A model generated the notes under the pieces. That model was not told the DNA's origin, did no database searches, and worked only from the letters and a program-made list of their open reading frames with translations. A stretch of 26,495 nt of DNA, taken from positions 1 through 26,495 of the forward strand of contig JBFXLE010000038.1 in assembly GCA_050173015.1 (NCBI GenBank), written 5' to 3'. The position numbers and the translations under genes are program-made. Source of the stretch: Calditrichaceae bacterium (GTDB taxonomy: Bacteria; Calditrichota; Calditrichia; Calditrichales; JBFXGD01). Below, piece by piece: positions 113-25,557 of this stretch (position 1 is the first letter of the stretch; every line of letters begins with the position of its first letter).

Positions 113-243
113 GCATAAGGGAGGGGAAGGGCATGATTTATCAGGCCCGGGGTGGGTTAAGAAGTAAGAAGTTTAAGAAAAAAGATAAAAGAAAAAAGAA
201 AAAAGAGTAAGAACTGGAGTATTCCCATGGCACCCCGAACTCC

Positions 244-534
244 GTTAACCACCGTGAACCGTCCATGTCATCCCGGAGGGATCTTCTGCTTGCTTGGGAA
301 GAGACGAAAAGTAGGAAGTTGGAAGTAGGAAGTAGGAATTTAAGAGCGTCAAGAGAAAAGAGTTAAGAGTTAAGTGTGGGAACGGACCGAATGCAGTTAA
401 CCGCGAAAAATTGATTCCCCAATCCCGAAGGGATGACATTTTTGTAGAAAAACGGACTCCGCGACATCCCGCGACCCCGTCGGGGTCGAACAATGACACC
501 GGGATTCCATGCTCTACAAAGCCGCGACACCTCC
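244..534. repeat. 291-bp composite repeat, copy 1 (AAGTAGG/GAGTTAA heptamer tracts plus REP-like hairpins)
   Basis: Aligns over its full length with 24858-25148. Contains the palindromes ATCCCGGAGGGAT, ATCCCGAAGGGAT and CGACCCCGTCGGGGTCG. Confidence 0.9.
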
Positions 535-539
535 CCATA

Positions 540-638
540 TCACCGCCCCTTTCTGTTCCGGTTAAAATTTCTTTTAATAATGATATAAAAGTCCAGAACA
601 ACTATGATGGCGTAGATTATTCTGACAAACGTTAACAT
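540..638 (-). CDS. Putative 32-aa single-TM peptide MLTFVRIIYAIIVVLDFYIIIKRNFNRNRKGR
   Basis: Hand-translated. Hydrophobic stretch followed by a basic tail; same MLTF start as the neighbouring peptide; weak RBS. Confidence 0.3.
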   Translation of the reverse strand: MLTFVRIIYAIIVVLDFYIIIKRNFNRNRKGR

Positions 639-1513: not shown

Positions 1514-4181
1514 GTCTCAATCCCCTCCCGCCTGAGGCGGAGGGAAACGGCTATCAGCTCCCGGCTGTCGGCAATCGGCTTTCCGAGCTGAAATTTTATC
1601 CTATAACCCTGCAATCTTGATTCTAAAATCTCTCACAAAGACACAAAGCCTTAGCGATTCTTCCTGGCTGACGGCGGGAACACAGCTATTAGCTATCGGC
1701 TGTTAGCTATCGGCTTTTCGATCAGAAATTCTTCCCTAAAAATCGACATACTTCTAAACTGCTCATTGACCTTGCCGGGAAGAAGCTCAACATTTCCCGC
1801 TCTTTCTTTGCCGACGGCTGGCGCACGGCTATCAGCTCTCGGCTGTCGGCAATCGGCTTTCCGAGCTGAAATTTTATCCTATAACCCTGCAATCTTGATT
1901 CTAAAATCTCTCACAAAGACACAAAGCTTTAGCGATTCTTCCTGGCCGATGGCTGGCGCGCCCGGCTATCAGCTCTCGGCTGTCGGCTATTGGCTTTTCT
2001 AGCCGGAAAATCTTCCCTAAAAATCGAAAGACTTCTAAACTGCTCATTGGCCTGACCGGGAAAAAGCTCAACATTTCCCGCTCTTTCTTTGCCGACGGCT
2101 GGCGCACGGCTATCAGCTCTCGGCTGTCGGCAATCGGCTTTCCGAGCTGAAATTTTATCCTATAACCCTGCAATCTTGATTCTAAAATCTCTCACAAAGA
2201 CACAAAGCTTTAGCGATTCTTCCTGGCTGACGGCGGGAACACAGCTATTAGCTATCGGCTTTTCGATCGGAAATTCTTCCCTAAAAATCGACATACTTCT
2301 AAACTGCTCATTGACCTTGCCGGGAAGAAGCTCAACATTTCCCACTCTTTCTTGGCCGACGGCTGGCGCACGGCTATCAGCTCTCGGCTGTCGGCTATTG
2401 GCTTTCCGAGCTGAAATTTTATCCTATAACCCGGCAATATTGATTCTAAAATCTCTCACAAAGACACAAAGCCTTAGCGATTCTTCCTGGCCGACGGCCG
2501 ACAGCTGATAGCCGACAGCCGCTCCCGTCTCAATCCCCTCCCGCCTGAGGCGGGCGAGCTTCATAACGGGGGGAACACAGCTATTAGCTATCGGCTATTG
2601 GCCTTTCTAGCCGGAAAATCTATTCTAAATATAGATAACTTCTCTTTCAATTTTTCAGCAAAAAAACTCAAACCTTTCGGTTGCTTTTTTGGCCGACGGC
2701 CGACAGCTGATAGCCGACAGCCATCTGGCTATCAGCTCCCGGCTATTGGCTATCGGCTATTGGCTGTTTCGTAACAAAATCATCCTACAAATTTTATCTA
2801 CTGCTAAATGACTAAATCTGTGAAGATGAAAAGTTTGTTTTACGAACACATATTCAAAACGTATTTAACTATTTGATTTTAGTTTTTTATGAAGATTCAT
2901 CAGCATTTTCACAATTATATTGTACTGATCAATTAGGTTGTCATTATCATTTTTAGATATATAGCCAAGATCATACGCAAGTTTCAGTTGATAAGAAATT
3001 TCTCCACAAGATCCAATAGCAATATTTACAAAATACCGGAATTCTTTGCTTCCTTCTCTGGCACCTCCCTCCGCCAAATTCATTGGAATGGAAGAGCTAC
3101 TGCGTCGCATCTGTAAACTCAGACCATATCTCTCTTCATCCGGAAACTGTCTGGTAATTTTGTAAATTTCTAAAACTAAACCGTGGGATAGCTGGAAGAC
3201 ATCATATTCTGGGATCTTCCTTGACACAATAGTCTCCTTAATGAATTTAGATAATAATTTTCAGCAAGGTCTTTGTTTTGTGAATTGTCGTAAAGAACTA
3301 TTCTGGGATAGAAACAATTTTGCAGATTCAGTCCAGGCCGGCACCCGGCTATTAGCTCTCGGCTGTTGGCTATTGGCTTTTCTATCGGAAAATCTATTCT
3401 AAATATAGATAACTTCTCTTTCAATTTTTCAGCAAAAAAACTCAAACCTTTCGGTTGCTTTTTTGGCTGACGGCCGACAGCTGATAGCCGACAGCCGCTC
3501 CCGTCTCAATCCCCTCCCGCCTGAGGCGGGCGAGCTTCATAACGGGGGGAACACAGCTATTAGCTCTCGGCTGTTGGCTATTGGCTTTTCTATCGGAAAA
3601 TCTATTCTAAATATAGATAACTTCTCTTTCAATTTTTCAGCAAAAAAACTCAAATCTTTCGGTTGCTTTTTTGGCCGACGGCCGACAGCTGATAGCCGAC
3701 AGCGATCTGGCTCCCGGCTATTGGCTCTCCAAACTGAAATTTTATCCTATAACCCTGCAATCTTGATTCTAAAATCTCTCACAAAGACACAAAGCCTTAG
3801 CGATTCTTCCTGGCTGACGGCCGATAGCTGATAGCCGACAGCCGCTCCCGTCTCAATCCCCTATGAATAACGGGGGGAAACACAGCTGTTAGCTTTCGGC
3901 TGTTAGCTATTGGCTTTTCTATCGGAAATTCTTCCCTAAAAATCGACATACATCTAAACTGCTCATTGGCCTGGCCGGGAAAAAGCTCAACATTTCCCGC
4001 TCTTTCTTAGCCGACGGCTGGCGCACGGCTATCAGCTCTCGGCTGTCGGCTATTGGCTTTCCGAGCTGAAATTTTATCCTATAACCCGGCAATATTGATT
4101 CTAAAATCTCTCACAAAGACACAAAGCCTTAGCGATTCTTCCTGGCTGACGGCCGATAGCTGATAGCCGACAGCCGCTCCC
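1514..4181. repeat. Modular repeat field: ~90-bp cores A, B and C separated by heptamer-periodic arms (GGCTATCAGC...GCTGATAGCC), with embedded CRISPR-repeat derivatives
   Basis: Core A (..GAAATTTTATCCTATAACCC..CTCACAAAGACACAAAG..) at ~1580, 1858, 2138, 2403, 3725, 4057. Core B (..CTTCCCTAAAAATCGA..CTAAACTGCTCATTG..) at ~1715, 1995, 2260, 3915. Core C (..AAAATCTATTCTAAATATAGATAAC..) at ~2603, 3378, 3586. CRISPR-repeat derivatives at 1514, 2527, 3503, 3850. Confidence 0.9.
2865..3227 (-). CDS. Four helix bundle protein (23S rRNA-IVP / TIGR02436-like, Avd-like fold)
   Basis: Family signature YKITRQFPDEERYGLSLQMRRSSSSIPMNLAEG...F..IAIGSCGEISYQL.LAYDLGYI. GTG start with AAGGAG RBS. Confidence 0.92.
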   Translation of the reverse strand: MSRKIPEYDVFQLSHGLVLEIYKITRQFPDEERYGLSLQMRRSSSSIPMNLAEGGAREGSKEFRYFVNIAIGSCGEISYQLKLAYDLGYISKNDNDNLIDQYNIIVKMLMNLHKKLKSNS

Positions 4182-5735
4182 GTCTCAATCCCCTATGAAT
4201 AACGGGGGGTATTCTGACCAACACACATGGCTAAAAAAGGAGAAGGCCATGAGGTCTCAATCCCCTATGAATAACGGGGGGTATTCTGACTTCCGATATT
4301 TTGGAGAACCACTCATGCCGCCGACTGAGTCTCAATCCCCTATGAATAACGGGGGGTATTCTGACAGAATGGAGAGTTTGTGCGGAAAATATTGGTATCT
4401 GAATGAGTCTCAATCCCCTATGAATAACGGGGGGTATTCTGACTGACCTGGACGTACTTCTGGGGCGAGGTCGTTGAGCTTCGTCTCAATCCCCTATGAA
4501 TAACGGGGGGTATTCTGACTTATTTATAAAAACCACTGCCCTGTTGCTATGAGGGCTTCGTCTCAATCCCCTATGAATAACGGGGGGTATTCTGACTGAA
4601 AAGCGATATCACCCTCATTCAATTTTCAAACATATGTCTCAATCCCCTATGAATAACGGGGGGTATTCTGACTTCAGCTCCGTTGTTATTGGAAGTCGGT
4701 GACTTCCGTAGTCTCAATCCCCTATGAATAACGGGGGGTATTCTGACCATTGATTATCTGGATTCGCTCGATGAAATGGAATTGTTGTCTCAATCCCCTA
4801 TGAATAACGGGGGGTATTCTGACTCGCGGACTTCGTGAGAATGGAGGGGCTTATCGACCCAGTCTCAATCCCCTATGAATAACGGGGGGTATTCTGACAA
4901 AGAAATACTATCCGAATGTGTGCTACAGATGTGGCGCAGTCTCAATCCCCTATGAATAACGGGGGGTATTCTGACTTTGAGGCCCAGGTCCTTGGTTATA
5001 TCAGGACCGGGGAATGTCTCAATCCCCTATGAATAACGGGGGGTATTCTGACAGGAGGGAATATGAGCGGATTTGAAAAGCTAATTGATGATGTCTCAAT
5101 CCCCTATGAATAACGGGGGGTATTCTGACCACATACCCTGGAGCTGTGCCGAGATATGGTTTTAGAGTCTCAATCCCCTATGAATAACGGGGGGTATTCT
5201 GACCACTATCCGGAGTTACCACGGAATCTCCGTGGATGGGTATGTCTCAATCCCCTATGAATAACGGGGGGTATTCTGACCAGGGCAGAGTGTTAAATCT
5301 GCCCCCTGCATAGGCTGATAGTCTCAATCCCCTATGAATAACGGGGGGTATTCTGACGAAAACGCGCTATTGTGCGAGCAATTGGCGCCCATAAGTCTCA
5401 ATCCCCTATGAATAACGGGGGGTATTCTGACCCCGAGCCCTGCAGACGTCGTGGTAACACACGACAATATGTCTCAATCCCCTATGAATAACGGGGGGTA
5501 TTCTGACATATTCCGCGACATCAAAGAAGGCATGGCCGGCAGACCATGTCTCAATCCCCTATGAATAACGGGGGGTATTCTGACATCGGGATCCGCGGCA
5601 TTGTTCCCATTGATGTCGATAACGTCTCAATCCCCTATGAATAACGGGGGGTATTCTGACTGAAGTCATGAACTTTAGCGTAGCGGTCGACGACAGCTGT
5701 CTCAATCCCCTATGAATAACGGGGGGTATTCTGAC
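4182..5735 (-). CRISPR. CRISPR array: 21 identical 37-bp repeats and 20 spacers of 35-41 bp
   Basis: Plus-strand repeat GTCTCAATCCCCTATGAATAACGGGGGGTATTCTGAC starts at 4182, 4254, 4329, 4407, 4483, 4560, 4636, 4711, 4787, 4862, 4939, 5016, 5093, 5167, 5244, 5321, 5395, 5471, 5548, 5624, 5699. The reverse complement ends in ATTGAGAC (ATTGAAAC-type 8-nt handle) after a CCCC/GGGG stem, so transcription is inferred on the minus strand. Confidence 0.98.
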
Positions 5736-6000
5736 TCCTGCCTGTTTCAGCCCTTGCGCGCCAAGGCCTGAAAGGGCCTGTTTGACGAACCTGTTTTTTC
5801 GGGCGTCATTTTGGGAGTCTTTTTTCATAAAAAACGACCTAAGTGCTTGTTTTTTATAGCCGTCAAACCGTTTTTAGCTTAAACTGCTGTTTTTCATGCC
5901 TTTAACCAATTTTTCCCATTTTCCGGAAAATGGTCTGACAAAATTCGCGCCTCTGGTCTAATCTAAAAATATTTTTTTGTCATTTCAACTCAAATTATCG
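5736..6000 (-). promoter_or_regulatory. CRISPR leader
   Basis: Non-coding, with A/T tracts, abutting the repeat at 5735 on the side predicted from repeat polarity. The distal boundary is approximate. Confidence 0.7.
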
Positions 6001-6140
6001 TTAATTGCGCTTCTTCAGCATTTCATTATCCCGCTACAATGGTCAGCCTAATTTTACAAAATCGCGCCGTGGATTGAGATTAATTCAAGTGCTATGTGAT
6101 CATACTGTCTTTGATGATCATCAAAATATCTAAAAATAAA

Positions 6141-7019: not shown

Positions 7020-7066
7020 AGTTACCTGTCCTGATTTTTAGTAAAAATATTTACAGCTACATAATA

Positions 7067-7352
7067 CAGCGATCTGGCTCCCGGCTAATGGCTATCGGCT
7101 TTCCGGACGAAAGTTTGATCTTATAACCCGTCAATTTTGATTCCTAAATCTCTCACAAAGACACAAAGCTATTGCGTTTTTTCTTTGCCGACGGCGGGAA
7201 CACAGCTATTAGCTATCAGCTGTTAGCTATCGGCTTTTCGATCGGAAATTCTTCCCTAAAAATCGACAGACTTCTAAACTGCTCATTGGCGTAACCGGGA
7301 AAAAACTCCACATTTTTGGCTCTTTCTTAGCCGACGGCCGATAGCTGACGAC
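7067..7352. repeat. Diverged A+B copy of the modular repeat, immediately downstream of the CARF-RelE stop codon
   Basis: Contains TCTCTCACAAAGACACAAAG (core A), CTTCCCTAAAAATCGAC..CTAAACTGCTCATTGG (core B) and the GCTATTAGCTATC arms. Confidence 0.88.
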
Positions 7353-7356
7353 TTTT

Positions 7357-8448
7357 TTACGGGCGCAAATGCAGATCCAGTTCATCAACCACAAAAACCG
7401 CCTCTTCAAAATGACCATAGATACGATCCGCGCATCCATCCGCCCAGGCGTCTATCTCATGTGTCGAACCCGACTTAAGCTCGGAACTTAACTGTTTAAA
7501 ATCGAATGATTTAAGATTGTATTTGCCGCCGGATTCAAGAAATCGCGCCAGCTGATCCATTCTTTCATTAACCAGAATCATCCTGTCCGGTTTGAGTCGT
7601 CCGGTTGAATTGATAAATTTCTGTGCATACCTGATCCCCGGTATCGGCGATTCATACAGCCGTTTGGCATACACCGCCTTGCGGGAATTATTCCACAAGA
7701 GCCATCCGTACGGTGATAATATGGTCTCTTTACCTATTTTAAGAACGAGAGTTTCCGGAAAGTTTTTGGGAATCGGCGCTTTGATCCCCATCGCTGTTTT
7801 TCTGAAGAATGGAAGATAGCTTTCCACAAGATTTTCAGCATCGATCGCTACCGGCAATTTTGGCAGTCTCAGAAGTTCATCACCCGATTCAAATACATAA
7901 ATGGCTTCGTCCGCGTAAAACATGGCCAGTGTCTGCATAAAACCAAGAACACTTTTAAAGCCGCCCGTGAGATTGAATACGATGTTGTATTGACTCTCCC
8001 TGTATCCGGGAATCGTCTCCTCACACCAGACGACCAGATCGGATAGAGCGGACTGGAAATACAACACATCATTGGTCTGCAGGTCAGGCTGTCTCTTCAC
8101 TTCCGCGATTTGACCGTGACTTCTTAGCCAGGCGGCCAGTATTTCACCCGTCATGTTGCCCAGCCAGGTATCGGTGGTCAGCAACAGATGATAATCCTTA
8201 TACGCGGAAAAATCACCTTTATAATACTTGTACAGCGCGTTTAATTCCGCCGATACCTTTTCCAAATCACTGATTTTTGTTTCATCCAGACGGCGTCTCG
8301 CTTTTTCGATCAATCCGGCCATTTGTCTTTCGGTTTCTTTGTCAGCATTTTTTATATTCGCGATGTCTCTGATTAATGCCTTTTCATGGTTATCTGCCGC
8401 GTTTGACAACAAACTGGTGCCGCATGTGGATAAAATATAGTTCTTCAT
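7357..8448 (-). CDS. cami1: APE2256-family CARF protein with C-terminal RelE-like domain (Cami1-like cOA-activated mRNA interferase)
   Basis: CARF motifs ILSTCGTSLL, SAELNAL, TDT..G, FNLTGGFKS, YVFE. The C-terminal ~90 aa (IRYAQKFINS...FDFKQL...THEIDAW...RIYGHFE...VVDELDLHL) fit a RelE pattern. Last gene of the type III operon. Confidence 0.75.
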   Translation of the reverse strand: MKNYILSTCGTSLLSNAADNHEKALIRDIANIKNADKETERQMAGLIEKARRRLDETKISDLEKVSAELNALYKYYKGDFSAYKDYHLLLTTDTWLGNMTGEILAAWLRSHGQIAEVKRQPDLQTNDVLYFQSALSDLVVWCEETIPGYRESQYNIVFNLTGGFKSVLGFMQTLAMFYADEAIYVFESGDELLRLPKLPVAIDAENLVESYLPFFRKTAMGIKAPIPKNFPETLVLKIGKETILSPYGWLLWNNSRKAVYAKRLYESPIPGIRYAQKFINSTGRLKPDRMILVNERMDQLARFLESGGKYNLKSFDFKQLSSELKSGSTHEIDAWADGCADRIYGHFEEAVFVVDELDLHLRP

Positions 8449-8460
8449 ACACCTTCCTTT

Positions 8461-10638
8461 TTAGTGATTGCCGTTTCCATAAAAATCACGCGCTTTTGGT
8501 AAGATATAACGATTACGCCAGGCGCTTCTACCGGGTTCTTTTTCAATGTCCATATACTGCTTTTGGCCCGCTTTTTTATCTTTTCTGCTGTAATCAAAAA
8601 TCGAATAAAGATCTTTGATATGAGGTAACTGATCAAAATTTGTTCCCAAAAAACCGGTGACAAAATTTTTAAATTCAGTTATAAAAAAGGACGTGTCCGG
8701 TACATCCTTACTAACAACAGGCCAGATGGACTGGTAGCGTTTTCCTCCATCCTGCCGGACATCCAATTTTTGAATATCGATTTTAGAGCTTCCCATACCA
8801 AGAGGTTTTCCCATACCAATTTTCCAGCGACTTTCGGGATTCATTTCAATCGCCCAAAGTATGGCTCCCAATTCCTCGGCAGAGACGCTTTTTAGTGTGA
8901 TGGAAAATTTAAAGGTATGACCCGGAGCAAGAGGCTTTGCGGAACTTAAAATATTTTTATTCTGCGTCTCTTTATCAAATATATTATTCCCGCTTTGGTG
9001 CCAGTAGAATTTTCTGCCCGCGATTCTGCTCTGGTTTGGATCACTAAAATAGTCTTTTAAGGGATTACCGGCTTTTTGATTCAGATACAACTGATATGAA
9101 GAGGGTTTCGGCGAATTTAAGGGCCTGAGCGCGCGGGGATTATCCGAGCAATAAGCAGGATCTGCCTGAACCAGAGCGCCGTCTTTCATCTTGCCCGCAT
9201 AACGCCCGATACCGACCGATACTTTTCCCGCGAGCCCAATACTGTCTTTTCCGGGCATATTGAAATTTTCCGTGCCAAACAATTTTTGACAAAATTCTAT
9301 TTTAGATGCATCCTTACGGCTTTCTCCCTTAAATGCCGGCGGAACATACTGTTTAAGTGAATATTTGTATGGAATCCTGAACATCTGCGACCTGCCAAAG
9401 GCATATACATCCCTATTTTGCGCACCATTTTTATTGAGATAGAATACCGGAATACCATTATCAGGGAATTTTAGATTTTCACCAAACATGGCCGTTTTAA
9501 AGTCTGTCGCGTCTTTTTCATAGGCGGCAACAAATTCTTTACTCACACGAAGCCATCTGTCCTGATTGCGTTCTTCATCATAAAAAACGGTTTCATGCTG
9601 TTTGCTGTTCATCGGACCCGAAAGGACAAGCCGGCCTTTATGAGTTCCATTTCCCGCACCCTGCACAAGATTAAATCTTAATCGTCTGTGACCTAATTCG
9701 ATTTCACCCTGAATTACATCACTAAAGCTGATATTACTGTTATTCTTATCATTGAAATGATTCACATCATCTCCGGACCGAATCATTCCCGACGCGTCAC
9801 GGTTCCTAAAATGTAATCCATTAATATCCTGTTTTCTGATTTTTGCCCAACTTGCGGGTTGTATATAATAACCATCCGATCTTTTATGAAGAAATCCGGC
9901 ATTTACCAGATAGTTCCCCTGATTGATATTTAAAAAAAGCTGAGCATAATTATTTTTTGGGCCCATATCCCGGACAAAGAAGAAGCGGTTTTCAACCCGA
10001 TCATAGCCGTTGCCCGTCGCGGCTTCAACAATACTACGCAGCGCTCCTTTTAACGATGTGGCGGGGATGCAGGGTTCGTTTTCCGAAAAAAGATGAAAAA
10101 ACAATCCTGACGGCTTCTCTCCAATGCCGCCATCCATAATGAATAACGGCTCCAGATTGGTTAATCCGCATTCAATCGTGCCCGAATAGGTTTTATTATC
10201 TCCCGTATCCAGACTAACCATCACCGGCTTATCGGGCAAGTTCACAAAATTATAGGGCGAGAAAGCGCCGGAACTCGCGTTTCCCTGAGCGCGGCTTGGA
10301 TCTTTGGGTGGTTCAAATGTTGTAGTATCCTGAATTAATTGAATATCGCCAAAGTCATCCTGATCAATATTTATGGCTTCTTCATTATTTCCATTTTTAT
10401 CGCCGGTGGGATTATTTTCATTCAGTTCCGCGGGTTTTTCCGTGGTTATTTTTCTGATATCAGAATATTCTTTTAAATAGTAAACGGGTATTTCGGACTG
10501 GCCCCCGATTTCTGATATAATTTCAGGAAATCTGGATTTTAACTGTCTTGACCTAATGCCTAATCTGTTTCCATTCTTATCCAGAACAAAAAAGGCATTA
10601 TTTTCCTGGCAAATTTTTCCGCTTTTCCAATCAGCCAT
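8461..10638 (-). CDS. cas7: Type III-D large Cas7 with insertion (TIGR03986-like RAMP)
   Basis: PYNFV, IPATSLKGALRS, GRKFYWH, ELGAILW and KIGMGKPLGMGS glycine loop. Start moved from 10710 to ATG 10638 (GAGGAG RBS, directly after the csx19 stop). Confidence 0.9.
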   Translation of the reverse strand: MADWKSGKICQENNAFFVLDKNGNRLGIRSRQLKSRFPEIISEIGGQSEIPVYYLKEYSDIRKITTEKPAELNENNPTGDKNGNNEEAINIDQDDFGDIQLIQDTTTFEPPKDPSRAQGNASSGAFSPYNFVNLPDKPVMVSLDTGDNKTYSGTIECGLTNLEPLFIMDGGIGEKPSGLFFHLFSENEPCIPATSLKGALRSIVEAATGNGYDRVENRFFFVRDMGPKNNYAQLFLNINQGNYLVNAGFLHKRSDGYYIQPASWAKIRKQDINGLHFRNRDASGMIRSGDDVNHFNDKNNSNISFSDVIQGEIELGHRRLRFNLVQGAGNGTHKGRLVLSGPMNSKQHETVFYDEERNQDRWLRVSKEFVAAYEKDATDFKTAMFGENLKFPDNGIPVFYLNKNGAQNRDVYAFGRSQMFRIPYKYSLKQYVPPAFKGESRKDASKIEFCQKLFGTENFNMPGKDSIGLAGKVSVGIGRYAGKMKDGALVQADPAYCSDNPRALRPLNSPKPSSYQLYLNQKAGNPLKDYFSDPNQSRIAGRKFYWHQSGNNIFDKETQNKNILSSAKPLAPGHTFKFSITLKSVSAEELGAILWAIEMNPESRWKIGMGKPLGMGSSKIDIQKLDVRQDGGKRYQSIWPVVSKDVPDTSFFITEFKNFVTGFLGTNFDQLPHIKDLYSIFDYSRKDKKAGQKQYMDIEKEPGRSAWRNRYILPKARDFYGNGNH

Positions 10639-10639
10639 A

Positions 10640-11164
10640 TCAATTCTCCTCTCCCAAACCGGTGAATCTTTCCGCGACGATACGGGCCAGCCCGTCTTCG
10701 TCATAATCAATATATTGACGCACTTTCAAAACCGGGGCGCGATCACCGCCCGTGTCGGGTATCCGGTACGGACTGATCTGAAATTCGCCCATCAATCTGA
10801 CATCTTTCTCTGTTACCTTTTTATCTCCACCCGCCAACAGCCACTGTGTATCTATATAATTGTCTTTACCCAAATCGCCGTCTGCTATTTCCATCCATTC
10901 CACGGATTCGCCGTTTACCACCAGCCTCACTTCCCGGGTTTCATCAAAAATCCGCCCGCTGAGCCAGTTTTCGGGATTTGTCAGTTTATCCGCCGGCTCT
11001 TCCAGCGCCCGCATCTGCCCCTGGCTGATCTCGATCCAGAACGGTTTTTCCGTTGATTCTATGATTCCATAAGCTTTGTTAAAGGTATTCAGGAGCTTCT
11101 TACCCGCTTCGGCAACAGATAATTTCTGCTTTTCACCGGCTATTTTATTCATAATTTTTTTCAT
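10640..11164 (-). CDS. csx19: Type III-D subunit Csx19 (TIGR03984-like)
   Basis: GRIFDETREVR and C-terminal VRQYIDYDEDG.ARIVAERFTGL; canonical position between the double Cas7 and the insertion Cas7. Confidence 0.88.
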   Translation of the reverse strand: MKKIMNKIAGEKQKLSVAEAGKKLLNTFNKAYGIIESTEKPFWIEISQGQMRALEEPADKLTNPENWLSGRIFDETREVRLVVNGESVEWMEIADGDLGKDNYIDTQWLLAGGDKKVTEKDVRLMGEFQISPYRIPDTGGDRAPVLKVRQYIDYDEDGLARIVAERFTGLGEEN

Positions 11165-11166
11165 AA

Positions 11167-12621
11167 TTACGCGCCCTTCTTCATTTGCTCGTTAAACGAC
11201 ACGGATAATTGGTCCAGCCAGCGGACGGCATCCCCCGTGAATGTATCCGGTAAATCGACCGCGCCGGCGCTGCCTGTGAGCGCTTCCAGCTGCACTCTTC
11301 CGCCCATCAGTTTTTTTAGGGTCACCTTACCCATCCCTCTCATTTTCCCAAATCCAAGGCGTATTTCACCCGTGAACAGATCCTTTAGCAAATGACCAAG
11401 CAGACCGAGCTGCCATAATTCGGGATTTTGCACCTGAATTGCCAGTTCAAATTCCGCGTCCTGATTCCAGATCGCTTCCATACTGTACAATGCCCCGTCC
11501 TTTGCCCCGCCGGTCAGCGGATCAATGGCCACATGATTGGTCACTTTTGTCATATTATTGGTGTCTTTAAAATAGGCGTCTTCAAAGAGAAATGCCCCCT
11601 GCCCATCATCCGTCGATCCAAAGCAGAGACTAACTTCTTTTGGTTCGGCTCCTTCCTTGATCCGGTCTTCCAGATACTGTCCGAATTTTTTAAGATCGAT
11701 GGCTCCGTCACTCATATATTTTTTATACCAGAGCGGATCAAAGGCTTTTTTGTTTCGGCAAAGGTTGATAATTCGTTCCGTCTGAGCGCGAAATGCTCCT
11801 TTAATGCTGCTGCCCGGGATGACAAAACTTTCCTTTCCATCCTGATCCATTTCTTTACGGCAGACCATATCGGGCGCGTCACCGTCATAAGCGGATTCGT
11901 CCACTACGCCATCCTTAATCATAAAGGGGCCGTCAATACCGCATAGAAGCCTGAAATTCAGGAATGTTTTGTTTGATTTAACATCGGGAAATCCGGAGTA
12001 ATCTACCGCCTTTGCCCTGTCATTCACCAGGAATTCAAGGTACGAATCAAACTCCTCCGCTTTGGATAAATCCCAGATATAAACTTTTTCTTCCGTCAGC
12101 GTAAACCGTCCCATTCCCCGGGATCCGGACGCGCCGAGGATAATTTCACTGTTTTTGAACCCTGTAATCCAGGCTTTAACCATTCCTTTTATCTGATTGA
12201 GGTCAATTTCTTCGTCCAGATCAATTTCAAGTAAAAAATCGAAGGTGGAACCGGCTTCGATAATTTCTTCGTCAAATTTGAGAGACGGAGCCGCAGTGCC
12301 TGTTTCACGCATTATTACCAGATGGTCGCGAATGGATCTTGCCGAGACGGAGTGAATTTCGGCATCTTCCACAAATACGCGGGAAGCCCATCCGTCGTCC
12401 CCATTTTGATAGCCGAATAACTGAGTTATGATTTTTTCATCTTTATATAAGTTTTGTGCATAAGCGCGCAGTGCGCCGGCAAGGCTTGTTCCGGGAATGT
12501 AAAAATTTCCCGAACCGTTTCTGGCCAATGGCTGATCGGTATAGAAATCATCCCCGACCGCGCCCGTGTGAAAAGCGGTCCTGTTCTTCAGTTTTCCGCG
12601 CAAAATCAATTTTTTAGCCAT
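11167..12621 (-). CDS. cas7: Tandem Cas7-Cas7 (Csm3-like x2) RAMP
   Basis: Two RAMP units: IPGTSLAGALR...LGASGSRGMG and IPGSSIKGAFR...LGFGKMRGMG. Each has an Asp at the Csm3 catalytic-loop position (FYTDQP, DAPDMV). Confidence 0.9.
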   Translation of the reverse strand: MAKKLILRGKLKNRTAFHTGAVGDDFYTDQPLARNGSGNFYIPGTSLAGALRAYAQNLYKDEKIITQLFGYQNGDDGWASRVFVEDAEIHSVSARSIRDHLVIMRETGTAAPSLKFDEEIIEAGSTFDFLLEIDLDEEIDLNQIKGMVKAWITGFKNSEIILGASGSRGMGRFTLTEEKVYIWDLSKAEEFDSYLEFLVNDRAKAVDYSGFPDVKSNKTFLNFRLLCGIDGPFMIKDGVVDESAYDGDAPDMVCRKEMDQDGKESFVIPGSSIKGAFRAQTERIINLCRNKKAFDPLWYKKYMSDGAIDLKKFGQYLEDRIKEGAEPKEVSLCFGSTDDGQGAFLFEDAYFKDTNNMTKVTNHVAIDPLTGGAKDGALYSMEAIWNQDAEFELAIQVQNPELWQLGLLGHLLKDLFTGEIRLGFGKMRGMGKVTLKKLMGGRVQLEALTGSAGAVDLPDTFTGDAVRWLDQLSVSFNEQMKKGA

Positions 12622-14230
12622 TGTTCTTCCTCCATTTGATGATCAGACCGCAAAATGTGGTGATAAACAGGATGACCGCCTTAAGATGAAATCGGGAAGT
12701 GTGATAGTATTGGGGCAGCCGATCCAATTCTAAAAATTCATAAAACTTTGTCCGGTCACTGATCACTTCTGTAAAAAACCGCATCAAATCTACCTTTAAA
12801 CCAGGTATCTCAATCTTAGCGTTCCACTGACCCTCTTTGTGTGCTTTTTTATCCCGTTTATTGTTCATATAGCTTTGTATCTCGCTCACACCGGTTGCAT
12901 TCAGCGCTTTGTTGCGCAACTCCTGAAGCTGTGTGTTACGCGGAAACTTTTCAAACGCGGCTTTTAGCTCTTTATCTCTTTTCGCGACAATTTCACGCAC
13001 TTTTTTTAGGATAATGACCGCCGCCTGTTTTTGAAATACGGCATCGGCCATATTTTCCGGAAGCCCTTCTATTTCCCACCAGTTTTTTACCGAGGCAGAT
13101 TCCGGATCCGGAACACTCACACCCGGAATATTGATTTCATTGCTGCCGTTACGCAGATGAAACAGGGAATTGTCAATGGCAATTCTTCCGTATCCCTCGT
13201 TGCGGCGTTCACCCAATCCATGTTGAAGCAGATACTGAATCGCCTCGTTCTTTCGCGCCCCCGTTATCCGCAGATGAAACACACTTCCCATCCTCACCGC
13301 CGGAACCATTGTCCGGAACTGTCCCCAATATCCGTTAAAACCGGATATCGTTTGAGATTTCTGATAATCATGAGTATCAGCCGCCTCAGCCACTTCAATA
13401 TTTTCAAATCCGGCTTGGTTTAAATATCCCGCTACTGCTTCGGCGGTAATCAACGATGAAGGTAAGCCGTTGGAATCTCTTAGAATGGCGTCACTTTCGA
13501 GAACCAGCCTTAAATCTGTTTTTTCGGGTATATTGTTTATTTTAAATTCTTCCGGATCCGATAAGGTCAGCACCGCCGATCCATATTCTGCGGATAATGA
13601 ACGCCCAATTTTAATCTCTCTTCTGCCACCAAAAAATTGATAAAAATGGCCGGCGTCTTCTTTATCGGCAAAACGTATTTCACCAAAGAATGTCTGACCC
13701 GCCGAAAGCGCTTCATAAACAAATACACCCCCCGTTTTGGTATCGGGACGCTGTGTATCGGGATTGACAGAGTTATGTGTAAAGGTTTCTTTATGAACCG
13801 GCACCCGGAACGGAATTTGATTAACCATTCTGAACCAGCCCGGTTTTAACGGTTTAAATATCATTTTTTCCGGCAGCGTGTCATTGTCCCGGTACATCTC
13901 ATACAGTTTCGCCGCTCCGGAATCTTCATCATCTTTCAAGGTTGGCAGATCCTTTTCACCCTTCGGATAATAGTAGCCCTGCGGGATAATCTCCGCCTGG
14001 TGTTCCGATCCGGCAATCGCGTTTCCGAACATGATTCTTTCGGTAGCTACTAAATCCTTGATAGTGATAAATCTTTCTTCTTCCTTTTTACGATCCAGCA
14101 TGCCGGCGGTTATTCCAAGCAGCACATTTCCGGGTATAAAATCAAGAGATCTGCGCCGGTTGGATTCTCCGGAATAATCCGAAATAACCGCGGGTCTTTC
14201 AAGATATATCTGATAATTTATCCTATACAT
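12614..14230 (-). CDS. csx10: Csx10 (Cas5-group RAMP) with probable C-terminal Cas11 small-subunit domain
   Basis: SLDFIPGNVLLG, IGRSLSAEYG, GLGERRNEGYG. The helical C-terminal ~140 aa (PRNTQLQELR...W...) resemble Cas11. Start moved from 14254 to ATG 14230 (GGAGG RBS, 8-nt overlap with the cas7 stop). Confidence 0.82.
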   Translation of the reverse strand: MYRINYQIYLERPAVISDYSGESNRRRSLDFIPGNVLLGITAGMLDRKKEEERFITIKDLVATERIMFGNAIAGSEHQAEIIPQGYYYPKGEKDLPTLKDDEDSGAAKLYEMYRDNDTLPEKMIFKPLKPGWFRMVNQIPFRVPVHKETFTHNSVNPDTQRPDTKTGGVFVYEALSAGQTFFGEIRFADKEDAGHFYQFFGGRREIKIGRSLSAEYGSAVLTLSDPEEFKINNIPEKTDLRLVLESDAILRDSNGLPSSLITAEAVAGYLNQAGFENIEVAEAADTHDYQKSQTISGFNGYWGQFRTMVPAVRMGSVFHLRITGARKNEAIQYLLQHGLGERRNEGYGRIAIDNSLFHLRNGSNEINIPGVSVPDPESASVKNWWEIEGLPENMADAVFQKQAAVIILKKVREIVAKRDKELKAAFEKFPRNTQLQELRNKALNATGVSEIQSYMNNKRDKKAHKEGQWNAKIEIPGLKVDLMRFFTEVISDRTKFYEFLELDRLPQYYHTSRFHLKAVILFITTFCGLIIKWRKNNG

Positions 14231-14876
14231 TATTTCCGGCCCTCCATTTTTCAAGCATCTCAGCGCGAGACCCGTCCCGCGCCAGTGTCATTTCCACCCT
14301 TCCTTTACCGCGCCGCCTGGTCCCCCCGATACGCTGTGTATGGAGAAGAAGCAGGCGCAGCAGATTCAATTCATCTTTTTCAAATTCACTGCCGTCGTGA
14401 CGGTAAATTTTTGCGTCAAAGGTCATATCCTTCCGCCCAAGCTCTATAAATCCAAGCTGCTGATTTTTTGCTTTGTGATTTTCATCCAGAGAAATCCGCG
14501 GGCTGACAAAACTGATCTCATTCAGCCAGATATTTCGGATATCCTCGGGCGCGTGTTGAAGCGAGGTGTTCTTATACGCGTCCCAGATACCATCTTCAAC
14601 ACGCCATTTGCCTGTCTGGGAATGCGTATTTTTGTCCCGGAGTTTATGGGTTCCCCAAATGACCGATGGTCTAAGGTGGCTGATCCCCTTCAGATGTTCC
14701 AGTTTCCATAATTTTTCATGCGTGTCCCTCAACACGCCGCGTATTGAACGCCCCGGAATAAACGGGAAACCGTTATTATCTCTTAACAGCATATTATCGG
14801 AGACACCGGGTAAGCCGATTCCTGTGCCGATATGCCAGTCACTGATAAACTTGAGTGTTATATCGTATGTTTTCAT
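14223..14876 (-). CDS. cas7: Cas7 (Csm3-group RAMP)
   Basis: SDWHIGTG...SD..LLRD..GFPFIPGRSIRGVLR and IGGTRRRGKG glycine loop. Confidence 0.92.
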   Translation of the reverse strand: MKTYDITLKFISDWHIGTGIGLPGVSDNMLLRDNNGFPFIPGRSIRGVLRDTHEKLWKLEHLKGISHLRPSVIWGTHKLRDKNTHSQTGKWRVEDGIWDAYKNTSLQHAPEDIRNIWLNEISFVSPRISLDENHKAKNQQLGFIELGRKDMTFDAKIYRHDGSEFEKDELNLLRLLLLHTQRIGGTRRRGKGRVEMTLARDGSRAEMLEKWRAGNNV

Positions 14877-16495
14877 TTGGACCCCGTTCCGTTTTCGTTG
14901 ACAAATTCAAGCGTCTCGATCAAATCGAAAATCGCCGTGCTATATGGTTCTGATGATCTAAATAAGGTTGGAGTGTCGTGGTAGTTGGTGAGAATGGATT
15001 CAAACTTCTTTGACTTCTTCATGTTAATCAGATTGATTTGCAGCTCCTGTTCACCCATCTCATAACCTTCTTTAGCTGAATTCAGTAGCGCTTTTAAACG
15101 GGTGCGCGGATAATCTTCTGTGTTTTTCAATTTTACAACGTCTTTAATCAATTGATCAAAGGACCTGTTTCCCGTATTATTGCCGATAACCCGGTAGGGT
15201 TTTTGCGTCAGCCACAGTTTTTTCCCGCCGCCGGTATAACTGTATTTGCGCTTTCTCATCTCCCAGATCAGATCCACATCCGTATCGGTTGAAACATGCC
15301 AGTCAATCCAGGCTTCTTCCTTATCTTTGTGCGCCGATTTCGCGGAAGTGATCAGCGATTCCGCCATCATATACGCCTGGTCAAAGGGGTAATGACTATG
15401 AACAATCGCCACACCCGCCGATGCCGTCAGACCATTCGCCGTGAATGATTCGGAAAATTGTTTGCTGACCTCATGAAAAGCTTCCTGATATACTTTACAG
15501 CATTCCAGCGCGATAACACCCGGGACTACCGCCGTAAAATCATCCCCCCCGATAATGATGGGACGAATCGGTAAGGTCGTTCTACCCTTCGCAGTTCCTT
15601 CCTTCACTGTGTTCTTTTGTAATATCCCGGTGTCTCCATTGGTCCATTGCTCATAGTTTGCCTCGACCCACTGCAGGACCTTTTCAAACACCAAATCGCT
15701 GGTCCTGCTGATATCCCCTGAAAATTGCCGCACTTTTTCAATATAATGTCTCGGAGATGGTGAATCCCCGAGCAGACTGACAATCTTTTTTCCCATCTGA
15801 TTGCCGTCGGCATGGATAATCGCTATATAATCCTTTCCCGATTTTTGACCCAGTTCATCCATATCCTTTGGAAAAGTACACAATTTACCGTTTTCACCTT
15901 TTAGGGTAATTTTGTTCATTTCATTCAGAAAACTGTCTTCGGCATATTCCCGTTTTATCAGTGACTGCGAAGACAAGCGTTCCTGATCTTTGCCGTATGA
16001 TATATGACCCGCGGCGGGCAGCCCGGTAGAATGACATCTGGCGACAAAAGGCGATGCCAAATCTCCCAAATTTGCCTGATGTCGTGCTTTTTTTCGCGCC
16101 AGTTTTGCTTCAGCCGTGTTGATGATGTTTTTAAAGTTTAAATTTTCCGACCAGTCAAATTCATGATGAATAACCTCAGCTTCCAACCCCGGCGCGTCGG
16201 TCAACAATCTTTTTGTCCAGCGTTTGATAACTGTTTTTGCCGTTTCCAAATCTCTGAACAGTATTTTCGCGTTCCCGCCGCCGGCGTAAATCACTTCGAA
16301 ATCGGCGCCGGTCTCAATGGCCGGCTGGTTTTTAATGACCTCGGTCGGATGTTCTGCGCGGATTCCCAGGCTTTCGAAAAGCCATTGACCCGTAGCCAGC
16401 TTGACTATTTCAGAAGCGCCGACAATTTCTCTCAGTCTGTTGCTTCCAAATATATACTGCTGGATTTGCAGTGTGTCGATCAATGTTAAAATCAT
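14873..16495 (-). CDS. cas10: Cas10, type III-D form (no HD domain, intact cyclase palm)
   Basis: Starts directly with IDTLQIQQYIF.SNRLREIVGAS; YAGGGN, IIHADGNQMG, RPIIIGGDD, SAGVAIV..HYPF; 540 aa. Confidence 0.96.
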   Translation of the reverse strand: MILTLIDTLQIQQYIFGSNRLREIVGASEIVKLATGQWLFESLGIRAEHPTEVIKNQPAIETGADFEVIYAGGGNAKILFRDLETAKTVIKRWTKRLLTDAPGLEAEVIHHEFDWSENLNFKNIINTAEAKLARKKARHQANLGDLASPFVARCHSTGLPAAGHISYGKDQERLSSQSLIKREYAEDSFLNEMNKITLKGENGKLCTFPKDMDELGQKSGKDYIAIIHADGNQMGKKIVSLLGDSPSPRHYIEKVRQFSGDISRTSDLVFEKVLQWVEANYEQWTNGDTGILQKNTVKEGTAKGRTTLPIRPIIIGGDDFTAVVPGVIALECCKVYQEAFHEVSKQFSESFTANGLTASAGVAIVHSHYPFDQAYMMAESLITSAKSAHKDKEEAWIDWHVSTDTDVDLIWEMRKRKYSYTGGGKKLWLTQKPYRVIGNNTGNRSFDQLIKDVVKLKNTEDYPRTRLKALLNSAKEGYEMGEQELQINLINMKKSKKFESILTNYHDTPTLFRSSEPYSTAIFDLIETLEFVNENGTGSK

Positions 16496-24606: not shown

Positions 24607-24857
24607 CTCCCTTAACTTTTGGATTGTTGGAATTTTGATAAGCTCCTATGAAAGTGAACTTATCCTGTTTATTATTTAAAGAGAAGAGATTCAGGAAGTT
24701 TTTTAAATTCTTCAAAAAAAAGACAAAAGAAGTAAGAGCGTTAAGAGAAAAGAGTTATAAGTAGGGAAAGAAAGTAAGAAGTAGGAAGTAGGAAGTAGGA
24801 ATTTAAAAGCGTTAGAGAAAAGAGTTAAGAGTTAAGTGTGGGGACGGACCGAATGCA

Positions 24858-25148
24858 GTTAACCACCGTAAACCGTAAATGTCATCCCGGAGGGATCTTC
24901 TGCTTTCTTGGGAAATGAAGAAAAATAAGAAGTAAGAAGTAGGAAGTAAGAATTAAAGGACGTTAAGAGAAAAGAGTTAAGAGTTAAGAGTAGGGACGGA
25001 CCGAATGCAGTTAACCGCGAAAATTTGATTCCCCAATCCCGAAGGGATGACATTTTTGTAGAAAAACGGACTCCGCAACATTCCGCGACCCCGTCGGGGT
25101 CGAACAATGACACCGGGATTCCCTGTTCTACAAAGCCGCGACACCTCC
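24858..25148. repeat. 291-bp composite repeat, copy 2 (direct repeat of 244-534)
   Basis: Same start (GTTAACCACCGT) and end (GCCGCGACACCTCC), same length. Preceded by heptamer tracts from ~24728. Confidence 0.9.
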
Positions 25149-25182
25149 GGCGGCAGGTGGAGTTAAGAAAAAGACGAAAACG

Positions 25183-25258
25183 GTCTGAACTTTGATTAAG
25201 ATGATTAAGAAACCGGAAATCAGAGTTTTCAATTAATCAGACGAATCATAGTTCAGAC
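25183..25258. repeat. Small inverted-repeat element
   Basis: GTCTGAACTTTGATT (25183-25197) pairs with AATCATAGTTCAGAC (25244-25258) at 14 of 15 positions. Confidence 0.75.
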
Positions 25259-25325
25259 AAGTAAGAATTTAAAAGCGTTAAGAGAAAAGAGTTAAGAGTG
25301 TATGAGTAGGGACGGACTGAATGCA

Positions 25326-25535
25326 GTTAACCACCGTAAACCGTAAATGTCATCCCGGAGGGATCTTCTGCTTTCTTGGGAAATGAAGAAAAATAAGAAG
25401 TAAGAAGTAGGAAGTAAGAATTAAAGGACGTTAAGAGAAAAGAGTTAAGAGTTAAGTGTAGGGACGGACCGAATGCAGTTAACCGCGAAAATTTGATTCC
25501 CCAATCCCGAAGGGATGACATTTTTGTAGAAAAAC
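25326..25535. repeat. Truncated third copy of the 291-bp composite repeat
   Basis: Near-identical to 24858-25067; ends after GTAGAAAAAC. Confidence 0.88.
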
Positions 25536-25557
25536 AAACCCCTCAACTGACCCTCCC

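Follow-up and report, generated by a model that had tools for sequence, protein, structure and literature searches.

What are shortened copies of a CRISPR repeat doing outside the array, each followed by the same would-be guide? A sequence-only reading of a contig from a Calditrichaceae bacterium raised this question, proposing that Cas6 could release guide-bearing RNAs from the copies and naming co-option of the repeat by an element, or passive co-duplication, as alternatives. We followed it up in the window, by which we mean the entire 26,495-nt contig (C38), in the rest of the genome (G000), in related genomes and in contigs from public sequencing runs and metagenomes.

A type III-D locus with truncated repeats outside its array

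By gene content, the locus is a type III-D CRISPR-Cas system (Table 1). The genes cas1 and cas2 adjoin the second array, on contig C17, and the genome encodes a stand-alone Cas6 (C7) and a Cas6b (C27). The crRNA sense of array 1 is the minus strand, with the oldest (terminal) repeat at 4182-4218. Its leader contains a promoter-like site (TTGAAA-17-TAGATT, 5988-5960), and contigs of other runs diverge from the window at 6018. None of the 98 spacers in arrays 1 to 4 matches the genome beyond chance words of 17 to 19 nt, giving no sign of self-targeting.

Table 1. Features of the CRISPR locus and its repeat fields in the window
Feature	Coordinates	Strand	Remarks
Left repeat field	1514-4181		Three modules (A, B and C), each ~80-95 nt, arranged as a mosaic with heptad junctions
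Outermost stub, loop-modified, cut short	1514-1540	-	No outer arm; abuts unique DNA by ORF 925-1473
Loop-modified stub	2527-2573	-	23-nt GC mini-hairpin for ATGA; arm 2493-2526
Four-helix-bundle/23S rRNA intervening-sequence protein (IVP) gene	2865-3227	-	PF05635, TIGR02436
Module C promoter-like site	3396-3424	-	TTGAAA-17-TAGAAT, 10/12 consensus; upstream of the four-helix-bundle gene
Second loop-modified stub	3503-3549	-	Transcript-sense flanks: module C promoter-like site, terminator-like hairpin
Exact 28-nt stub	3850-3877	-	Stem, loop and handle, between inverted heptad arms; arm and linker 3816-3849
Heptad arm with 6-nt linker	4148-4181	-	Would-be guide template, directly after the terminal repeat
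CRISPR array 1	4182-5736	-	21 repeats of 37 nt; transcript-sense repeat ends ATTGAGAC
Leader of array 1	5737-6018	-	Nearly identical to the leader of array 2 (C17)
Patch of the same modules and heptads	7060-7356		Lies between the CARF gene and the ORF after it; lacks a repeat stub
Type III-D effector genes	7357-16495	-	CARF protein, TIGR03986 RAMP, Csx19, Csx7-like, Csx10-like, small RAMP, Cas10
Right repeat field	25556-26495		Same family; runs off the contig end
Decayed loop-modified stub	25556-25606	-	No heptad arm; inner edge of the right field
Exact 28-nt stub	26069-26096	-	Same arm and same AAACAC junction as the 3850 stub
Exact 28-nt stub	26406-26433	-	62 nt from the contig end

Exact copies of 28 of the 37 repeat nucleotides had been described at 3850, 26069 and 26406, and genome-wide mapping of the first 28 nt of the repeat, allowing up to two mismatches, bears them out. 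The 44 matches comprise 40 array repeats (21 on C38 and 19 on C17) and four copies outside arrays: the three named and an additional one at C17:56, beyond the window. All four continue with AAACACAGC where the array repeats have TATTCTGAC, and this common continuation indicates a single shared breakpoint. The stem and 8-nt handle are preserved as claimed, exactly so in these four stubs. The loop-modified copies at 2527 and 3503 are likewise real, a 23-nt GC mini-hairpin replacing ATGA in the loop, and we found two further decayed copies that the sequence-only reading lacked, at 1514-1540 and about 25556-25606, both without a heptad arm. With the would-be guide paired in a stem, the predicted folding energy is -43.8 kcal/mol for the 28-nt stub (z -2.5) and -67.2 kcal/mol for the loop-modified stub (z -5.5). 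Two scenarios were rejected. The stubs are not duplicated leader-repeat units, as the leader shares only 9- to 12-nt words with the modules of the fields, and arrays were not seeded from a stub by spacer uptake, as array repeats end TATTCTGAC and stubs continue AAACAC.

Collapsed or chimeric short-read assemblies could in principle produce such fields and stubs: the window is a whole contig with both ends in repeats, and the order of units varies between samples. Against this, four separate sites with differing neighbors share the stub junction, and two public runs of separate studies (X1 and X2, of which X1 may be the source sample) yielded contigs with the junction of the 28-mer and AAACAC. 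A metagenome scan for stub-like junctions gave two matches, one an ordinary array with a variant repeat (L056) and the other an independent 1,400-nt contig (L057) from another strain of this locus that carries the same junction. Contigs of four DNA runs confirm the modules and junctions; no piece spans the whole field, and coverage gaps over it carry no meaning. A relative assembled as a single 4.98-Mb contig (G003, described below) has the same architecture. Misassembly of the stub junctions is thus unlikely, and we regard an artifactual origin of the fields and stubs as extremely improbable.

The flanking arm and its complements

The same would-be guide does follow each copy named in the sequence-only reading, as had been stated, and reads GGGAGCGGCTGTCGGCTATCAGCT(A/G)TCGGCCGTC in transcript sense. 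Its 34-nt template, a heptad arm with linker, occurs eight times in the genome (at most one mismatch), each time adjoining a terminal, truncated or loop-modified repeat, and these occurrences include both terminal array repeats. The proposal that the guide is complementary to the element's own arm needs amending: the GCTGATAGCCGACAGCC "arm" is mostly the guide's own template. The 17-mer AGCTGATAGCCGACAGC, one base left of that arm, has 12 exact copies, all on the plus strand of C38 and C17: the guide loci account for eight, and arm-ATCT-arm junctions for the other four. A partner arm is predicted to pair with the guide within the same transcript, forming an arm-arm stem.

Complements of at least 34 of 36 nt exist solely at the eight loci themselves, on the antisense strand and always with the full anti-tag GTCTCAAT. 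No target was found elsewhere in the genome, the next-best complements reaching 25 to 29 of 36 nt, and the weaker matches (24 to 29 of 36) are other heptad arms of the same fields except for one (24 of 36, on C4). Nor did the genome yield a partial match of the guide to a regulated promoter or gene of the kind that defines CreA/CreR. The heptads themselves are equally local: 67 of the 68 GCYNNYR tract matches fall within fields adjoining the four class-1 arrays (on C38, C17 and C27), in a count of both-strand patterns in which one tract can score twice. Surveillance of a genomic repeat family, one of the functions suggested earlier, is therefore rejected for this genome, where the arm and the heptad family are confined to CRISPR loci.

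The arm and stub together vary at only 1 column in the 47 nt common to all eight copies. The 28 nt of repeat are identical in six copies, and a 62-nt stretch of arm and core is almost invariant. The surroundings are more variable: 10 of 95 columns differ among the four copies of module A, and 14 of 40 among six copies of the right arm, where about the last seven variable columns are due to a single copy whose arm ends sooner. Either selection or gene conversion with the arrays could account for the low variability of arm and stub. This invariance relative to the surroundings counts against reading the stubs as a by-product of recombination.

Were the stubs small-RNA genes, Cas6 would release crRNA-like RNAs of about 37 to 45 nt starting AUUGAGACGGGAGCGG, all with one constant guide for regulation or surveillance, or as decoys that would occupy Cas6 or III-D complexes. 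Type III systems are not known to need a downstream repeat. The exact stem, loop and handle of the four stubs, the near-invariant arm and core, and the presence of Cas6 genes beside a III-D locus all agree with this idea. So do predicted promoters and terminators around some copies: a promoter-like site, judged by consensus match, adjoins the stubs at 2527, 3503 and C17:56, with a terminator-like hairpin opposite for two, and the sites belonging to the first two (2622-2650 and 3604-3632, upstream of the stubs) are identical to the module C site at 3396-3424. These promoter and terminator matches around three stubs also count against a by-product of recombination. Small-RNA genes are disfavored by the guide itself, whose sole target is its own antisense with anti-tag, whose predicted pairing would lock it in a stem, and whose arm is not dispersed in the genome. 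For type III mini-arrays, moreover, PMC10120712 found neither conservation nor targets.

Repeat fields as mosaics of heptad-armed units

The modules of the fields are joined through five kinds of heptad junction: the 28-nt stub, the loop-modified stub, arm-ATCT-arm, a "deleted-core" form, GACGGCGGGAACACAGC, and GAYGGCTGGCGC. Upstream of the 34-nt arm and its stub, any of the modules A, B and C can occur, and the module next to the arm differs between the two terminal array repeats. Inverted arms flank modules and stubs in the window; the tracts nearest the four-helix-bundle ORF (2728-2765 and 3348-3385) are in direct orientation. The right field probably continues into C17:1-245, the trailer of array 2. 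We found no homology between the leader and the field modules beyond the short words noted above. The units differ from MITEs in that their copies occur only in the trailers of four arrays and in a single cas intergenic gap, their inverted ends are present but imperfect, and the flanking direct copies are 26 to 28 nt of CRISPR repeat and not a short duplication.

The gene within the left field matches PF05635 (E value of 8.5e-36) and TIGR02436 (2.9e-34). It is the sole IVP gene in the genome and sits inside a trailer field. Heptad tracts occur within 400 nt at 18 of 25 homologous loci from other phyla; 11 of these 18 have words of the GCTGACA, GCCGTCA or GCTAACA type like those in the window, and tracts lie on both sides of the gene in 11 of the 25. 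Tracts also accompany 21 of 29 IVP loci from the same order. What the sequence-only reading called a non-CRISPR element is a mosaic, and the heptad-armed units that compose it are of the type that bears the IVP gene. A general link between IVP genes and CRISPR is unsupported, with CRISPR-like arrays at none of the 25 loci from other phyla (fetched flanks of up to 5 kb) and at none of the 29 same-order loci (within 1.5 kb, best copy per genome only). In another relative (G030), we dropped 98 GCYGAYA matches as a sign of a dispersed element, the one locus read being inside the coding sequence of a T9SS sorting domain.

Heptad-armed trailers in other arrays and in a relative

All four class-1 arrays of the genome, which represent two repeat families, end in heptad arms. 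In the R3 arrays on C27, the terminal repeat is followed directly by the same heptad family, and the tandem units there keep only 12 to 16 nt of the repeat 3' end, with no hairpin. A fifth array of another type, on C32, has no heptad ending. Passive duplication by itself does not account for the arrival of one heptad family at the trailers of two repeat families that are unrelated, a point against a by-product of recombination.

A same-genus genome (G001) has no match to the repeat. In the relative G003, both arrays that we examined have a heptad arm (AAATAGN) and then a full repeat at the trailer. Five stubs of 26 nt lie between inverted arms, whose heptads are AT-rich and unrelated to those of G000. 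An IVP cassette with inverted arms, bounded by two of the stubs, lies inside an array and splits off a mini-array of three spacers, which follow a stub whose stem and handle are still present. The IVP gene of G003 is a PF05635/TIGR02436-type match (70.7 bits), and its protein aligns with that of G000 over only 59 residues, at 29% identity. Although their heptads are unrelated, both genomes have the breakpoint at the stem base, so that exactly the Cas6 hairpin and handle are retained. A stem-base breakpoint in two genomes counts against a by-product of recombination. Substitutions affect four of the five G003 stubs, three of them in the stem. The outermost of these stubs retains an outer arm that simple duplication of a target would not lead one to expect, and this too counts against a by-product of recombination.

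These comparisons bear on the small-RNA genes considered above. The same stub and arm recur in the L057 strain; in G003 the architecture is analogous, with unrelated arms, an unconserved guide sequence and mostly mutated stubs, and the R3 junctions lack the Cas6 hairpin. Together with the guide's restriction to its own antisense, this makes small-RNA genes improbable, and a regulatory or decoy guide is not favored.

In another reading, the CRISPR repeat would serve the cassette as a place to land and be processed, and the cassette would behave as an intervening sequence of CRISPR arrays. Insertion at a repeat would duplicate the Cas6 hairpin and handle; Cas6 would then excise the cassette RNA from pre-crRNA, much as RNase III excises rRNA intervening sequences. 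The crRNAs downstream would retain a correct 5' tag, and array transcription would also express the cassette, including any IVP gene that it carries. The G003 cassette between two stubs, with spacers beyond a stub of intact stem, fits this scheme, as do the shared stem-relative breakpoint of two genomes with distant IVPs, the involvement of all four class-1 arrays of G000 and the placement of its only IVP gene in a trailer. A figure legend in PMC10910872 also names "23S rRNA IVP" among new associations of CRISPR adaptation modules. The scheme fits poorly with the lack of arrays in the flanks covered at other IVP loci, the hairpinless R3 stubs and the stem substitutions in G003, and tandem duplication followed by deletion can yield the same picture. 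We consider landing at the repeat rather unlikely, and the wider proposition that heptad-armed four-helix-bundle cassettes colonize CRISPR arrays, with Cas6 excising the cassette RNA and neighboring crRNAs staying functional, if anything more doubtful.

A probable origin in cassette colonization and recombination

We favor, with moderate confidence, a plainer account, in which the stubs are fragments of trailer-end repeats turned into junctions of recombining cassette units and are thus a recombination by-product of colonization. The units would be short modules, one with the IVP gene, bearing inverted tracts of 7-nt repeats at both ends. A cassette may have lodged exactly at the handle end of a repeat, its other junction falling at the base of a repeat stem, which would leave it flanked by direct repeat copies of 28 and 37 nt. 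Unequal crossing-over and gene conversion among repeat copies and heptad arms would then have amplified and shuffled units of stub plus cassette, producing multiple identical stubs with one and the same cassette end after each. The junctions with and without a stub, the confinement to CRISPR loci, the heptad endings of all four class-1 arrays, the heptad tracts at IVP loci elsewhere, the architecture of G003, the predicted pairing of the guide and its lack of a target support this account, as do the dispersal of the loop insert (a GC mini-hairpin module with 19 matches genome-wide) and differences between strains by whole units. We know of no insertion mechanism or enzyme for such cassettes, which counts against both this account and landing at the repeat.

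On this account, the constant "guide" is probably the terminal heptad arm of a cassette unit and not a selected spacer, and it probably steers no immunity. In read-through or module-borne transcripts, the arms may pair into long hairpins that bear the repeat stem-loop at their tip. Any product of Cas6 cleavage at the stub would pair only with the antisense of its own locus and carry the self anti-tag, and it would therefore be inert for type III immunity. Among the options listed in the sequence-only reading, the evidence favors an element that co-opted the repeat or passive co-duplication.

Implications and comparison with known systems

If this plainer account is right, it urges caution in screens for regulatory or decoy cr-like RNAs, since settlement of a hairpin cassette at an old array end, followed by its amplification through recombination, can generate identical stubs with a single "guide". 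The trailers of all four class-1 arrays, and arrays of a relative, have been colonized by the same kind of heptad-armed element, which may partly explain the appearance of 23S rRNA IVP genes in large CRISPR-linked gene screens. Should landing at the repeat prove true, the cassettes would have a second class of structured-RNA host and would co-opt a second host processing enzyme, the stubs would be a readable footprint of cassette insertion and processing, and the mobility of cassettes and their tolerance of structured RNA hosts would become testable questions.

Lone repeat-derived hairpins are known from CreA/CreR cr-like RNAs and the solitary repeat units (Racr) of phages. The stubs resemble both as lone hairpins with a handle that Cas proteins could bind or cut. 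Unlike CreA/CreR, their guide has no partial match to a promoter or toxin gene; unlike Racr, they are chromosomal and tandemly repeated beside the host's own arrays rather than phage or plasmid borne; and unlike either, their guide pairs only with its own antisense strand, with an anti-tag.

Literature searches on heptamer repeats and CRISPR, on MITEs or insertions in CRISPR repeats or trailers, and on intervening-sequence proteins and CRISPR returned no description of repeat stubs inside heptad cassettes, although the supplements of PMC10910872 and PMC10120712 may bear on the subject. The portion of the latter (a 2023 preprint) on stand-alone repeats beside type III arrays presents them as degraded copies and proposes duplication of the terminal unit. 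Like those repeats, the stubs are partial, lie outside but near an array in type III flanks and have no detectable target. They differ from the repeats described there in sharing an exact breakpoint at the tip of long inverted heptad arms, in being iterated together with a cassette and in occurring at four class-1 arrays and in a relative with other heptads.

According to the account in PMC4990558, the rRNA intervening sequence of Coxiella carries an S23p ORF, and RNase III cuts its terminal stem of 28 bp. Both it and the present units combine a small PF05635-family ORF, or gene-less derivatives, with inverted ends that in the present units may form, as there, a stem of about 25 to 30 bp, are lodged in a highly transcribed, processed and structured RNA gene, and look selfish and horizontally spread. 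As far as that account goes, the present units differ in that their host is a CRISPR array trailer and not rRNA helix 45, their arms are visibly 7-nt repeats, the units are tandemly amplified, and excision by RNase III or Cas6 is hypothetical. A structural parallel to the fields as mosaics is offered by the intergenic repeats of heptamer arrays and hairpins in Rehm et al. (2015; PMC4692102), which, in the features described there, likewise alternate hairpin modules with slippage-prone 7-nt tracts, reshuffle quickly and are lineage specific. In contrast to those repeats, the present fields draw one of their hairpin modules from the CRISPR repeat of the host itself, and their heptads are confined to the CRISPR loci of the genome.

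Position of the repeat stubs

The window spans contig C38 in full (26,495 bp). The genome (G000; 4.34 Mb in 54 contigs, 41.9% GC) carries five CRISPR arrays in total. The minus-strand repeat of array 1 has the 3' end ATTGAGAC, the leaders of arrays 1 and 2 are nearly identical, and cas2 and cas1 come after the array 2 leader on contig C17. Together these fix the orientation and make the repeat at 4182 the terminal and oldest one, and the stubs (truncated CRISPR repeats) therefore sit in the trailer. The window lacks a Cas6 gene; elsewhere in the genome, C27 carries a Cas6b gene and C7 a stand-alone Cas6 gene. The stand-alone gene (L022:8388-9254, minus strand; TIGR01877, E 1.7e-30) lies far from the arrays, beside housekeeping genes such as ApbC-like, RecN, and riboflavin genes. 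Adjoining cas1-cas2 on C17, a 479-aa open reading frame (L001:3162-4601, minus strand) partially matches the family A DNA polymerases (PF00476, E 8.8e-13), an unusual neighbor for an adaptation module.

Coordinates of the arrays, repeat fields, and associated genes
Feature	Contig	Position	Description
Array 1	C38 (window)	4182-5736	Minus-strand crRNA sense; 21 identical 37-nt repeats
Leader of array 1	C38	5737-6018	282 nt; nearly identical to leader of C17 array
Type III-D cas genes	C38	7357-16495	Csx19, Csx10-like, Csx7-like, TIGR03986 RAMP, Cas10, CARF protein
Array 2	C17	246-1653	19 repeats; same repeat as array 1
R3 array (L002)	C27	42288-44255	27 repeats; unrelated, weakly structured 37-nt repeat
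R3 array (L003)	C27	59148-61864	37 repeats; same repeat as L002
Fifth array	C32	4721-6405	26 repeats of 36 nt; other type, just downstream of an ORF
Repeat field	C38	1514-4181	Mosaic of modules A, B, and C, ~80-95 nt each
Repeat field	C38	25556-26495	As above
Repeat field	C17	1-245	As above
Four-helix-bundle/23S rRNA intervening-sequence protein (IVP) gene	C38	2865-3227	PF05635, TIGR02436; in field; sole copy in G000

A genome search at ≤2 mismatches located 44 copies of the first 28 nt of the repeat. Forty of these copies are array repeats, and the other four are exact nonarray stubs: those at 3850, 26069, and 26406 that the sequence-only reading had reported, and one at C17:56 added by the genome-wide mapping. 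All four share the junction of GGGGGG with AAACACAGC; in transcript sense, the 8-nt AUUGAGAC is followed by the arm (GGGAGC...), the heptad tract that abuts the stub. The loop-modified copies noted at 2527 and 3503 were also confirmed; the 23-nt insert that replaces ATGA in them is one instance of a short GC-hairpin module (CCCGCC..GGCGGGC; 19 occurrences genome-wide). To these we add two decayed stubs, at 1514 and ~25556, both without an arm. The common arm noted after the stubs is borne out across the genome, as all eight copies of the 34-nt arm plus linker (≤1 mismatch) touch a repeat or stub. It is highly improbable that the stubs and fields are an assembly artifact, because the stub junction recurs in contigs of two other public runs and in the independent metagenome contig L057.

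Two weaker resemblances were also seen. Approximately 830 nt outside the outermost stub (1514), positions 664-687 (AATTCCCGTCGTATGAATAACGG) resemble the repeat; the 12-mer TATGAATAACGG has just two genome occurrences outside the arrays and stubs, and the alignment score was reached by 2 of 500 shuffles. It may be the remnant of a repeat or a hairpin formed by chance. Upstream of the leader, GTGGATTGAGAT (6068-6079) agrees at 10 of 12 positions with the inverted handle end of the repeat, which may be chance.

Mosaic structure of the repeat fields

Within the fields, modules are linked by 7-nt repeat tracts, GCYGAYA and its inverse. The junctions contain a 28-nt stub (n = 4), a loop-modified stub (n = 2), arm-ATCT-arm (n = 4), GACGGCGGGAACACAGC (n = 4), or GAYGGCTGGCGC (n = 5), and the GACGGCGGGAACACAGC form looks like the stub junction minus a core that would have been lost between two ACGG words. 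Upstream of the same arm plus stub, any of three modules is found, and at the two terminal array repeats the module next to the arm differs. Tracts of at least three GCYNNYR heptads gave 68 genome matches, among which a single tract may count twice since the patterns cover both strands; 67 of the 68 adjoin CRISPR arrays or fall within a single intergenic gap at the cas locus. Judging from contigs of public DNA runs, the leader and modules recur in other samples but the spacers mostly do not, and the unit order in L057 differs from that in the window, both of which fit a fast-recombining field. A separate family of purine-rich heptads (AAGTAGG and GAGTTAA) with conserved modules is present at both ends of the window (150-600 and 24700-25550) and has relatives on >40 contigs, often at contig ends.

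Evaluation of a proposed constant guide RNA

The sequence-only reading proposed that Cas6 could release crRNA-like RNAs from the stubs, all with one constant guide, which might act as a regulatory or decoy RNA. Several points favor a function. The stubs retain exactly the stem, loop, and handle, and the 47 nt common to the eight arm copies have one variable column, with a 28-nt core identical in six copies. Variation is far higher in module A (10 of 95 columns) and in the right arm (14 of 40, of which roughly the last seven columns trace to one copy in which the arm ends sooner). By consensus matching, module C carries a promoter-like TTGAAA-17-TAGAAT (10 of 12 matches), which resembles the predicted leader promoter, and then a terminator-like hairpin. 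In transcript sense, this promoter-like site precedes the IVP gene as well as the stubs at 2527, 3503, and C17:56. A promoter scan returned 8 promoter-like sites versus 7.9 in shuffles.

The guide itself, however, finds only its own loci. When both genome strands were scanned for sites complementary to the 36-nt guide, those matching at 34 or more positions proved to be the antisense of the eight guide loci and nothing else. Each is followed by the complete anti-tag, GTCTCAAT, which marks self in type III systems. The next best complements (25 to 29 of 36) fall in further heptad arms of the repeat fields, and none of the 98 spacers targets the G000 genome. In the predicted fold of the minus-strand RNA, the guide and its partner arm pair into a long stem capped by the stub; the energies are -43.8 kcal/mol (z -2.5) with the 28-nt stub and -67.2 kcal/mol (z -5.5) with the loop-modified form. 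Four of the five stubs in the related genome G003 carry substitutions, three of these in the 4-bp stem. Stand-alone repeats beside type III arrays, as treated in the part of a large survey drawn on here (PMC10120712), show neither conservation nor targets and were judged degraded. We consider a dedicated crRNA-like RNA quite unlikely.

Recurrence at other arrays and in relatives

At both R3 arrays, the terminal repeat runs at its handle end straight into the heptad family of the C38 fields, and the trailers also contain tandem units of ~195-460 nt that retain just 12-16 nt of the 3' end of the repeat. The Cas6b gene is directly upstream of the first of these arrays, and no effector genes were found among the nearby ORFs scanned. 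That one heptad family lies at the trailers of arrays with two unrelated repeats is a point in favor of function, as passive duplication alone is insufficient to account for it. Neither heptads nor stubs occur at either end of the C32 array, whose ordinary flanks are unique among the five. C10 41800-42900 and C43 3168-3480, flagged by a crude array search, were rejected as arrays; they consist of ~60-95-nt tandem units (GGAATGCATCGCCCCTAC..., GTTTTACCCCTTCCCTCC...) and are satellites, because their spacers are not unique.

Of 40 further genomes from the order and class, 4 contain the repeat family of arrays 1 and 2 (R1). The relative G003 is assembled as a single contig of 4.98 Mb, and the trailers of both arrays examined in it contain an AAATAGN heptad arm, a short YCC linker, and a full repeat. 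Five 26-nt stubs lie between inverted arms, and a PF05635 cassette with a stub on either side cuts a mini-array of three spacers off the main array. The stub breakpoint relative to the stem is the same as in G000 despite unrelated heptads, and the IVP proteins of the two genomes are 29% identical over an alignment of only 59 residues. In a second relative, G016 (L015, C174 1700-2500), the terminal repeat of one related array has a ~50-nt GC-rich loop insert, and this unit is present in three copies with CACAAAG heptads and their inverse between. A heptad-like run in a third, G030 (L024, C3 ~1495-1530; GCTATCAGCTATCGGCTATCGGCTGTCAGC), is coding and reads TAISYRLSAVS in a T9SS C-terminal sorting domain, so many of the 98 pattern matches in that genome may be coding rather than repeat elements.

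Origin of the stubs and relation to intervening sequences

The most economical explanation, and one we regard as fairly probable, starts with a heptad-armed cassette that settled at the trailer (old) end of the arrays and became flanked by direct copies of the CRISPR repeat. Units of stub plus cassette would then have been amplified, shuffled, and homogenized via recombination, and the constant guide would be the end of the cassette. Homologs of the IVP gene offer a comparison. A heptad tract lies ≤400 nt from the gene at 18 of 25 homolog loci of other phyla, with tracts detected on both sides at 11 of the 25, and 11 of the 18 tract-bearing loci have GCTGACA/GCCGTCA/GCTAACA-type words, as in the window. 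Tracts also occur at 21 of 29 same-order loci (best copy per genome only), every locus with its own word. A bolder variant, in which the cassette would use the repeat both to land and to be processed by Cas6, has a parallel in rRNA intervening sequences, which exploit RNase III. It is unlikely, weakened by the finding that a CRISPR array is near none of the 25 other-phyla loci (flanks of up to 5 kb) or 29 same-order IVP loci (1.5 kb). A link between IVP and CRISPR is also listed in one other screen (PMC10910872).

Returning to the more probable reading, we read the field as gene-bearing and gene-less IVP cassette units, because the homologs are typically bracketed by heptads and the arrangement matches that of intervening sequences. 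As described in the portion of PMC4990558 used here, rRNA intervening sequences carry an S23p ORF and end in a 28-bp stem that RNase III cleaves, an architecture matched by the heptad-bracketed homolog loci.
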